Notes: generated by a model not told the origin, from the sequence alone. 8,080 nt of DNA from a virus (IMGVR_UViG_2703719366_000016), one strand, 5' to 3'; counted from the stretch's first letter, positions 4,204 through 5,189 are shown. Program-made: numbers and translations.

Positions 4204-4857
4204 TTACCCAAACGTCTCTTCAGGCCATTGGCTGGCGATAACTTTCCCCACAACGGAACAACTCTCATTGCATGGGATCATTGGATATTGCGGGTTTAGT
4301 GGTTGTAGAAACACCTGACCGCTATCCCTGATCAGTTTCTTGAAGGTAAATTCATCACCACCAAGTCTGGCTATGCAGAAATCGCCGGGCTCAACAGCTT
4401 GCTCAGGGTCAACCAGAATTAACATCCCGTCAGGAAAACTAGGTTTGGAACCTGTTGGTGCGGTCATTGAGTTACCTTCAACCTCAAGCCAGAATGCAGA
4501 GTCACTGGCTTTTTTGGTTGTGCTTACCAATCTCTCCGCATCACCTTTGGTAAAGGTTCTGAGTTCTGGAGAGAACATCCCAGCCTGAACATGAGAAAAA
4601 ACAGGGTACTCATATTGTTTTTTAACTGGGGCCGATGAGTATTCGCCAACAGGTGAAAATGTCCCGTCGTGGTTGAATGATATGTTATCAATACCAAGGT
4701 ATTTAAACACCACACCAATATCACTAAGAGATGGATGACGAGATCCGCGCAACCAGTGTCCAATTCCACCCTGCGTCATACCTAGCTCTTCGGCTAACTT
4801 CTCTTGAGTTATGCCGAGCTCTTTCATTCTGGATCTAGCCAGTTCATACCATTTCAT
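4204..4857 (-). CDS. cI: cI-type prophage repressor, chimeric: non-lambda N-terminal HTH domain plus lambda-like C-terminal S24 autocleavage/dimerisation domain
   Basis: C-terminal ~140 aa ([27 protein letters not shown]...[12 protein letters not shown]) is near-identical to lambda CI as I recall it, including the Ala-Gly cleavage site and Ser/Lys dyad context. The N-terminal HTH ([26 protein letters not shown]) differs from lambda. Start chosen at ATG 4857 (SD AAGGA, 7-nt spacer); in-frame alternatives are ATG 4863, ATG 4899 and TTG 4905 (track start). Confidence 0.9.
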
Positions 4858-4872
4858 TTTCATGTCCTTATT

Positions 4873-4947
4873 ATTACGCTCTGTACTGGAACCATCCATG
4901 CACAATGTGTATTTTTACTTGTATTTGAGAAGTACATATTGTATTTT
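4873..4947. promoter_or_regulatory. oR / pR / pRM divergent control region
   Basis: Operator 15-mer AGTACATATTGTATT (4931-4945) is shared with oL. pR candidate: -35 TTGTAT (4919-4924), 17-bp spacer, -10 TATTTT (4942-4947). A weaker operator-like copy lies on the other strand at 4873-4887 (AGTACAGAGCGTAAT), overlapping the cI RBS as OR3 does in lambda. Additional TTGTATT repeats. pRM not pinned down. Confidence 0.5.
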
Positions 4948-4973
4948 TTATTCGTGGTTACTATGGAGGGCAT

Positions 4974-5189
4974 ATGAGCAACCTACGAAAATATCGAGAG
5001 TCACTGAATATCTCTCAAACAACACTTGCTAAGGCAGTTGGATGCACACAGGGAGCTATCGGACATTGGGAATCTGGTCGTCGCTTCCCAGACCTTAAAA
5101 CATGCCGTGCTCTTGTTGCGTGTCTAAACAAGTTAGGCGCAAAAGTAAGTCTTGATGACGTGTTCCCGCCGGAGCACAAAGCCGCTTAA
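4974..5189 (+). CDS. cro: Cro-type HTH regulator (XRE family)
   Basis: 71-aa ORF divergent from cI, with ATG at 4974 and SD GGAGGG upstream. HTH LAKAVGCTQGAIGHWESGRRFP has a recognition helix nearly identical to the cI N-domain ([15 protein letters not shown]), consistent with a shared operator set. Confidence 0.8.
   Translation: MSNLRKYRESLNISQTTLAKAVGCTQGAIGHWESGRRFPDLKTCRALVACLNKLGAKVSLDDVFPPEHKAA

Follow-up and report, generated by a model that had tools for sequence, protein, structure and literature searches.

The closest described relatives of this locus are Shiga toxin-converting phages of the VT2-Sakai type, whose cI/cro switch (repressor, Cro, and six operator sites) is already known from annotation or publication. 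GenBank records AP000422 and AP005153 annotate, in addition to cI and six putative operators, pL, pR, pRM, nutL, nutR, terminators, and a CII site, and the VT2-Sakai entry carries the remarks "cI similar to lambda CI" and "cro similar to bacteriophage L C2" (AP000422). This immunity is the "CI2c / Cro4" type of Smith et al. 2012 (PMC3430580), who published the hybrid relationship of the repressor to that of lambda, took a unique amino terminus to imply different DNA binding, and found Cro4 to be common to these Stx phages. Fagerlund et al. 2022 placed the CI protein in Clade I, the clade nearest lambda, with 61% overall identity to lambda (PMC8951638), and Villafane et al. 2008 reported about 50% identity between the N-terminal domain of the epsilon34 repressor and its counterparts in L, VT2-Sa, and Nil2 (PMC2629481).

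The window (the whole stretch of 8,080 nucleotides that was analyzed) very probably represents the immunity, or early control, region of a VT2-Sakai-type lambdoid Shiga toxin prophage of Escherichia coli, judging from its sequence identity to known phages, which was computed here together with the domain boundaries, the catalytic residues, and the placement of six operator sites relative to consensus promoters. Positions 4100 to 5300 are 100% identical to Stx2 phages 1717, YYZ-2008, and phi330, as well as to several Stx2a phages, and 99.9% identical to AP005153/4 (Stx1-converting phage and Stx2 II; E. coli O157:H7 Morioka), while the cI-OR segment shares 99.7% identity with VT2-Sakai (AP000422). 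Across at least 60 phage records, cI, cro, and the DNA between them matched at 99.2 to 100% over 376 to 1,201 bp. The best matches of the whole window that were free of IS elements were phages 1717, 2851, WGPS4, and Nil2. Using a threshold of at least 90% identity, we found the cI-cro segment in 776 of 5,426 complete E. coli genomes (approximately 14%), and VT2-Sakai-type immunity is thus common in this species. Based on open reading frames, family scans, and matches to the VT2-Sa annotation, the surroundings of the switch are organized as follows:

55..1091, IS3-family element (ORF list, family scans)
1319..1687, minus strand, Ea10-like gene (ORF list, family scans)
2180..2452, minus strand, N antiterminator gene, transcribed from pL (Pfam N_peptide, 3.4e-32; annotated in AP000422)
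2556..2596, minus strand, nutL, putative in VT2-Sa (verbatim match)
2851..2879, minus strand, intrinsic terminator, the annotated end of the pRM transcript, within a lambda-like patch (2764-2879, 87.5% identity)
3181..3702, minus strand, 173-aa ORF in the slot of lambda rexA/rexB (phrog_2602, unknown function, E = 3.5e-102; H0093 in VT2-Sa)
5200..5239, plus strand, nutR, putative in VT2-Sa (verbatim match)
5331..5627, plus strand, cII (Pfam Phage_CII, 6.3e-32)
5340..5353, annotated CII-binding site for pRE

Genes for O and a DnaB-like helicase follow cII on its right, according to the ORF list and family scans. The 173-aa ORF had no Pfam match; its location places it within the transcription unit of cI (pRM). 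Broken frames at 3925-4194 on the minus strand had been considered as a RelE/ParE remnant, a candidate that we rejected: Pfam returned nothing meaningful, and only the first 47 residues matched a family, phrog_3467, of unknown function.

The repressor gene and its parts were located at the following positions:

4204..4857, minus strand, cI repressor, 217 aa (ORF list; start as annotated in AP000422; annotated as cI in AP000422, AP005153, and AJ413274)
4615..4857, minus strand, N-terminal helix-turn-helix (HTH) domain and linker of cI, residues 1-81, recognition helix TQGGIGHW, not lambda-like
4204..4614, minus strand, lambda-derived block of cI: hinge with the A92-G93 cleavage site, S24 domain (S130, K173), and stop codon

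If translation began at an alternative in-frame ATG, 6 nt farther upstream (4863), the protein would be 219 aa long; a TTG-initiated ORF reaching to 4905 was dismissed as an over-extension.

The earlier note on this DNA had described cI as a lambda-like C-terminal domain joined to an N-terminal HTH that is not lambda-like, and both halves of this description were borne out. The C-terminal 136 residues are identical to lambda cI at 135 positions (99.3%), while only 20 of the first 81 residues (24.7%) agree with lambda, and the N-terminal domain is consequently not of the lambda type. Pfam recognized HTH_3 (1.9e-10, residues 10-57) and Peptidase_S24 (1.1e-28), and the top PDB matches of cI were lambda repressor structures (3bdn, E = 3e-96; 8gmu, E = 3e-89). 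Alignment to the lambda repressor, by which the note had proposed to place the domain junction, located it sharply at codon Y82 (window 4614), within the hinge and 10 residues ahead of the Ala-Gly cleavage site. At the DNA level, the lambda-like block is 92.9% identical to lambda over 411 nt, its codons differing by 28 synonymous changes and a single nonsynonymous one (W to L); blastn delimited the match to 4208-4614 at 93.4%. Both edges of the block are sharp, one at codon Y82 and the other at the stop codon, and across the region encoding the N-terminal domain, identity to lambda drops to 10 to 53%. We therefore read cI as a hybrid repressor in which a lambda C-terminal domain is carried on a non-lambda HTH.

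Because the junction precedes the cleavage site by 10 residues, A92-G93, S130, K173, and the dimerization/cooperativity domain are all lambda's. In the alignment, the cI motifs VQAGMF, EGNSMT, and FTFKKL correspond to A111-G112, S149, and K192 of lambda, and the protein shows the features by which the LexA/lambda-CI family is recognized, namely, HTH_3, an S24 domain, an Ala-Gly site, and a Ser/Lys dyad. With site and dyad intact, SOS cleavage of cI is expected. In a mitomycin C induction study of the Sakai prophages, Sp5/VT2-Sakai, which has the same type of repressor, was rated repressor-intact, and noninducibility by mitomycin C was linked to prophages with repressors that lack the peptidase motif (PMC2669165).

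The DNA-binding domain had also been called new, and here our results disagree: it belongs with the HTH_3 repressors of phages L/ST64T and epsilon34/Oslo. When the N-terminal 83 residues were used in a tblastn search, identical copies in Stx phages were followed by repressors of Salmonella phages at 52 to 56%, these being the 103203_sal5 and Oslo group and the L/ST64T C2 proteins. The N-terminal part of cI is 52.5% identical to Salmonella phage Oslo cI and 50.6% identical to the C2 protein of ST64T, which is phage L-type. Collinearity of the epsilon34-like Oslo cI with the window's cI moreover extends along all 217 residues and takes in the linker, with 80.1% identity in the C-terminal part; lambda cI matches Oslo cI at 80.9% in the C-terminal part and at 23.5% in the N-terminal part. 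By these alignments, an L/epsilon34-type N-terminal domain on a lambda-type C-terminal domain is an established family architecture, and the lambda N-terminal domain is the outlier.

These relationships bear on how the hybrid arose. One account holds that there was no fresh chimera at all: an L/epsilon34-like HTH and linker on a lambda-type S24 domain would be the native, older form, with lambda as the odd one out, or gene conversion confined to the sequence coding for the C-terminal part would have homogenized both lineages. To describe the protein as a new domain on a lambda C-terminal domain would then have the direction of exchange backwards or not fixed. We regard this account as a real, if somewhat less than even, possibility. 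The full-length collinearity with Oslo cI and the identities just given speak for it, as do the occurrence of the same full-length protein in the P22-like non-Stx phages 683R2 and phi458 and the labeling of lambda's own amino terminus as "unique" by Smith et al. (PMC3430580). Against it stands a DNA identity of 93% that breaks off abruptly at Y82 and at the stop codon and proves a recombination event whichever its direction, although two sequences cannot give that direction. Recombination between lambda-like and VT2-Sa-like lineages is, on this comparison, certain, and either direction is possible. What follows builds on the hybrid repressor as it stands in the window.

Separated from cI by a divergent control region of 116 bp lies the second regulator of the switch:

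4974..5189, plus strand, cro, 71 aa, all-alpha HTH_3 type, recognition helix TQGAIGHW (Pfam HTH_3, 4.2e-12)

The Pfam scan gave no match of this protein to the lambda Cro family. By fold signature and by its paralogy to the N-terminal domain of its own cI (35% identity over 62 residues, E = 7e-11 in BLASTP), it fits the 434/P22-type (all-alpha HTH_3) Cro proteins, and it is 69% identical to ST64T Cro, in keeping with the GenBank remark on cro, "similar to bacteriophage L C2" (AP000422). The near identity of the cI and Cro recognition helices, pointed out previously, holds at 7 of 8 residues (TQGGIGHW versus TQGAIGHW).

The promoters and operators of the two control regions, of which the left one lies near 2640-2720, are listed below:

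2642..2670, minus strand, pL, TTGACC-17 nt-TACTAT (promoter scan match and annotation string)
4919..4947, plus strand, pR, TTGTAT-17 nt-TATTTT (VT2-Sa annotation string, verbatim)
4870..4898, minus strand, pRM, TGGATG-17 nt-AATAAT (VT2-Sa annotation string; geometry read from the sequence)
2643..2659, OL1, TAGTACGATATGTACTT, spacer and -10 of pL; its core is the 15-mer noted earlier at 2644-2658
2668..2684, OL2, CAATACAATTTGTTCTA, over the pL -35; a 15-mer match with 2 mismatches (2669-2683, minus strand), missed earlier
2701..2717, OL3, TACAACGCTTTGTATTT, leave-one-out rank 6 of 8,015, missed earlier
4872..4888, OR3, TATTACGCTCTGTACTG, pRM -10 and spacer; its core is the weak copy noted earlier at 4873-4887
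4898..4914, OR2, ATGCACAATGTGTATTT, abutting the pRM -35, missed earlier
4930..4946, OR1, AAGTACATATTGTATTT, spacer and -10 of pR; its core is the 15-mer noted earlier at 4931-4945; top matrix score, leave-one-out rank 1 of 8,015

A promoter scan of the window found pL and did not call pR or pRM, the placement of which rests on the VT2-Sa annotation and on geometry; pR is a weak match to the sigma-70 consensus (-35, 3/6; -10, 4/6). Distances were measured on the promoter strings annotated in AP000422.

The earlier note had reported a shared 15-bp dyad at pL and pR with a weaker third copy. Both 15-mers are found exactly (0 mismatches) at the positions given for them, AGTACATATCGTACT at 2644-2658 (minus strand) and AGTACATATTGTATT at 4931-4945 (plus strand), and they occupy the same place in the two promoters: each begins 6 nt past the -35 hexamer, overlapping the spacer by 11 nt and the -10 by 4 nt. 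The weaker copy, AGTACAGAGCGTAAT, is present at 4873-4887 (minus strand) with 3 mismatches. Its sequence was correctly identified, but not its place, since it was said to lie over the cI ribosome-binding site (AAGGA, 4865-4869), which it only adjoins; it covers the -10 and spacer of pRM. The three sites proposed stand as the cores of OL1, OR1, and OR3, but the set is one of six, OL2, OL3, and OR2 having escaped notice. All six 17-mers annotated as "putative operator" in AP000422/AP005153 (three in OL and three in OR) occur verbatim in the window.

The motif is well above background, with 4 matches to the 15-mer observed against 0.46 expected and none of 200 shuffles reaching 4. A matrix built from OL1 and OR1 only ranked OL2 3rd, OR2 4th, OL3 7th, and OR3 8th of 8,015 positions, and leave-one-out matrices ranked the six operators between 1 and 8, with OR3, OR2, and OL3 as the weak matches (ranks 6 to 8). 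The twelve half-sites yield (A/T)A(G/A)TACA(A), with A5 and C6 in every half-site and A2 in 11 of 12. Adjacent sites are spaced 32 bp (OR1-OR2), 26 bp (OR2-OR3), 25 bp (OL1-OL2), and 33 bp (OL2-OL3) apart. An OR2 at the lambda-like distance of 24 bp from OR1 was also considered and rejected, as the 17-mer centered at 4914 is unlike the half-site and absent from the top matrix matches.

Since the exact copies overlie the spacer and -10 in a pair of promoters from a single phage, and AT-rich promoter cores may resemble one another, the shared 15-mer could in principle be a duplicated or conserved promoter core and no repressor site. We consider this highly improbable. The motif is a dyad, and four more copies are found away from the -10, namely over the -35 of pL, upstream of that promoter, and at and over pRM. 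The six sites are all retained in the diverged relatives 683R2 and phi458, which have an OR of about 92% identity; most substitutions hit the central triplet and spare the half-sites, as in OR2, where the window's ATG is AGA in these variants. OR3 is likewise conserved in 683R2, phi458, and phiKp_30. In addition, ST64T and epsilon34-type phages, the repressors of which have the recognition helix in common, carry the same dyad family at OR and OL: exactly six L-type sites were picked in these two regions of ST64T by the matrix of the window's sites, the C2 and Cro proteins of ST64T having the same helix, and the epsilon34 operator consensus WTACRAWWTGTAT (PMC2629481) belongs to this family as well. 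The 17-mers are accordingly treated below as candidate repressor sites. Footprints or gel shifts of these operators with the cognate repressor were not found in the searchable literature, outside which some likely primary sources lie.

By analogy with lambda, we infer binding, the order of the sites, pRM activation, and cleavage as follows. Dimers of cI would bind the six 17-bp dyads, three in OL and three in OR. Occupancy of OL1 and OL2 at pL and of OR1 at pR would shut off N and cro-cII-O-P, while OR2, which abuts the pRM -35, would mediate activation of pRM, and OR3, over the pRM -10, would shut pRM off at high repressor levels. Transcription from pRM is predicted to start near the ATG at 4863, and counted from this start, OR2 is centered near -42. 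Cro, a small protein paralogous to the DNA-binding domain of cI and nearly identical to it in the recognition helix, may bind the same sites. Upon DNA damage, RecA-stimulated self-cleavage at A92-G93 (S130, K173) would split the DNA-binding domain from the dimerization/cooperativity domain and lead to phage induction. OR2 does not overlap the pR -35 and lies 32 bp from OR1, compared with 24 bp in lambda, so that lambda-style OR1-OR2 cooperativity is assumed in this scheme. Lambda-type looping between OL and OR through the near-identical C-terminal domain is plausible, given that the distance between them is 2.29 kb and that in lambda is 2.41 kb.

A specificity different from that of lambda had been suggested by the earlier note, and the window indeed contains no 17-mer within 3 mismatches of the lambda operator (TATCACCGCCAGTGGTA family). 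The opposite premise, that lambda CI itself recognizes these operators and immunity is shared with lambda, underlies two studies (PMC9803871, PMC10742460). In the second of these, six VT2-Sa operator sequences (Table S1), the same as those of the window, were synthesized for gel shifts with lambda CI in 2023 and gave apparent Kd values of 3.7 to 6.4 μM (PMC10742460); other binding data on the six sequences were not found in the searchable literature. These values favor shared immunity at face value, but they are more than 10-fold weaker than those for lambda OR1/OL1 and nearly uniform over unrelated sequences, as would be expected if binding were nonspecific. To us, the micromolar, near-uniform affinities look like nonspecific binding, because the N-terminal domains are unrelated (24.7% identity) and the window has no lambda-like operators; conversely, the matrix of the window's sites did not pick the operators of lambda when applied to that phage. 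We therefore give the premise of immunity shared with lambda very little credence and retain a separate specificity as the very probable one.

Taken together, our results confirm the original observation, and its interpretation was essentially right, with corrections concerning the novelty of the DNA-binding domain, the number of sites, and the position of OR3. There is little new in the locus itself: the hybrid repressor, Cro, promoters, and six operators were annotated between 1999 and 2003 and discussed in papers from 2008 to 2023. The switch governs the induction of Shiga toxin phages and is therefore medically relevant.

Compared with immunity regions of the VT2-Sakai type, we found no difference of substance. 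The same region is present in VT2-Sakai/Sp5 (AP000422), AP005153/4, 1717, YYZ-2008, 2851, and Nil2, and the six annotated operators, pL, pR, pRM, nutL, and nutR all recur verbatim in the window, where the T-run in the pR -10 lacks one base relative to AP000422. Beyond cII on the right, the replication module (O and DnaB-like helicase) is of the type of 1717, 2851, and Nil2 and not of VT2-Sakai, and the left part of the window, in contrast to VT2-Sakai-type phages, carries an IS629-like element.

With lambda, the window has in common the hinge and C-terminal domain of cI (135/136) with cleavage site and Ser/Lys dyad, as well as the overall plan of 17-bp operators, three each at OL and OR, with OR1 and OL1 on the spacer and -10 of pR and pL and OR2 near -42 of pRM; the OL-OR distances are also similar. 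In contrast, the DNA-binding domain is unrelated in sequence to that of lambda and the operators differ in sequence, Cro, an HTH_3 protein paralogous to cI, is not a lambda-type Cro, operators are spaced 32/26 bp in OR and 25/33 bp in OL compared with 24/23 and 24/20 bp in lambda, and the 173-aa ORF takes the place of rexAB.

The resemblance to Salmonella phage L/ST64T runs through the DNA-binding parts. The helix of ST64T C2, TQGAIGHW, agrees with that of the window's Cro at 8 of 8 residues and with that of its cI at 7 of 8, and the operators of ST64T are six copies of the same TACA-N3-TGTA-type dyad with spacings of 34/26 and 25/30 bp, like those of the window. The pL/OL DNA of the two is 81% identical over 81 bp, and C2 and the window's cI share 51% identity in the N-terminal domain and 47% in the C-terminal domain. 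It is conceivable, though in our view rather doubtful, that the VT2-Sakai-type repressor and Cro recognize the same operators as the C2 and Cro proteins of phage L/ST64T. If they did, one immunity specificity would extend across two genera on two different C-terminal (cooperativity/cleavage) domains. In a related manner, the lambda C-terminal domain would act in this phage on an operator layout (32/26 and 25/33 bp) of the L-type module and not of lambda, which would constitute a natural domain-swap test of the spacing tolerance of lambda-type cooperativity.

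In the slot of rexAB, with cI on one side and the terminator at 2851-2879 on the other, lies a reading frame:

3181-3702, minus strand, 173-aa ORF, phrog_2602, unknown function

This ORF had no match in Pfam and, judged by its position, shares the transcription unit of cI. Salmonella phage Oslo is 85% identical to the window across 2849-3830. Directly downstream of cI lie disrupted reading frames (3925-4194, minus strand), whose conceptual spliced translation matched phrog_3467 (113 aa, unknown function) at its first 47 positions only, and for this reason the segment looks like a gene remnant. 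A RelE-like toxin, our initial guess for the same segment, was not supported.

In the 5 kb compared, homology to lambda was confined to the cI block and two short patches. The first, at 2764-2879, is 87.5% identical to lambda between OL3 and rexB, terminator included, while the second, at 5566-5667, is 79% identical to the lambda cII-O junction. Among the Stx phages, the window, 1717 and YYZ-2008 are one base short of VT2-Sakai (L004, AP000422) and Stx2 II in the T-run of the pR -10 (4943-4949), and this single indel accounts for the identity of 99.7-99.9%. At the left edge of the window, an insertion sequence was found:

55-1132, IS3-family (IS629/IS1203-like) element, left of the Ea10-like gene
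55-354, orfA of this element
402-1091, orfB of this element

Homology of the window to IS-free Stx phages begins at window position 1133; the insertion is shared by phi330 and PA45 only. orfA is broken by a 33-base N run (283-315).

The 5' end of cI (region 4857-4876) contains two in-frame ATGs, at 4863 and 4857. Since the first lies 7 nt past the annotated pRM -10 (AATAAT, 4870-4875), the pRM transcript could, speculatively, be leaderless, like that of lambda. The second lies 7 nt past an AAGGA, and we speculate from this sequence that it may be the start used on the longer pRE transcript. In Salmonella phage ST64T, the annotated c2 start (MCVVTVNTSRNNLRMKTPW...; L008 1459-1497) overruns an OR3-like site at 1476-1492, and the real c2 start is probably the downstream ATG, as is the case for the TTG-extended ORF of the window (to 4905).

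Previous studies treated the VT2-Sa operators as evolutionary variants of the lambda operators and assayed them with lambda CI (PMC9803871, PMC10742460). The DNA-binding domain of the cognate repressor is unrelated to that of lambda (24.7% identity), and thus this premise appears to be wrong, and the binding of lambda CI to the VT2-Sa operators, in the micromolar range, is probably non-specific.

The arrangement of the operators was also compared with known systems. In the window, centre-to-centre spacings are 32/26 bp in OR (4872-4946), where OR2 lies clear of the pR -35, and 25/33 bp in OL (2643-2717). Those of ST64T are close (34/26 and 25/30; L008 1416-1492 and 2228-2299), whereas those of lambda are unlike them (24/23 and 24/20). 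The spacing of the operators thus follows the DNA-binding module, even though the cooperativity domain in the window is that of lambda.
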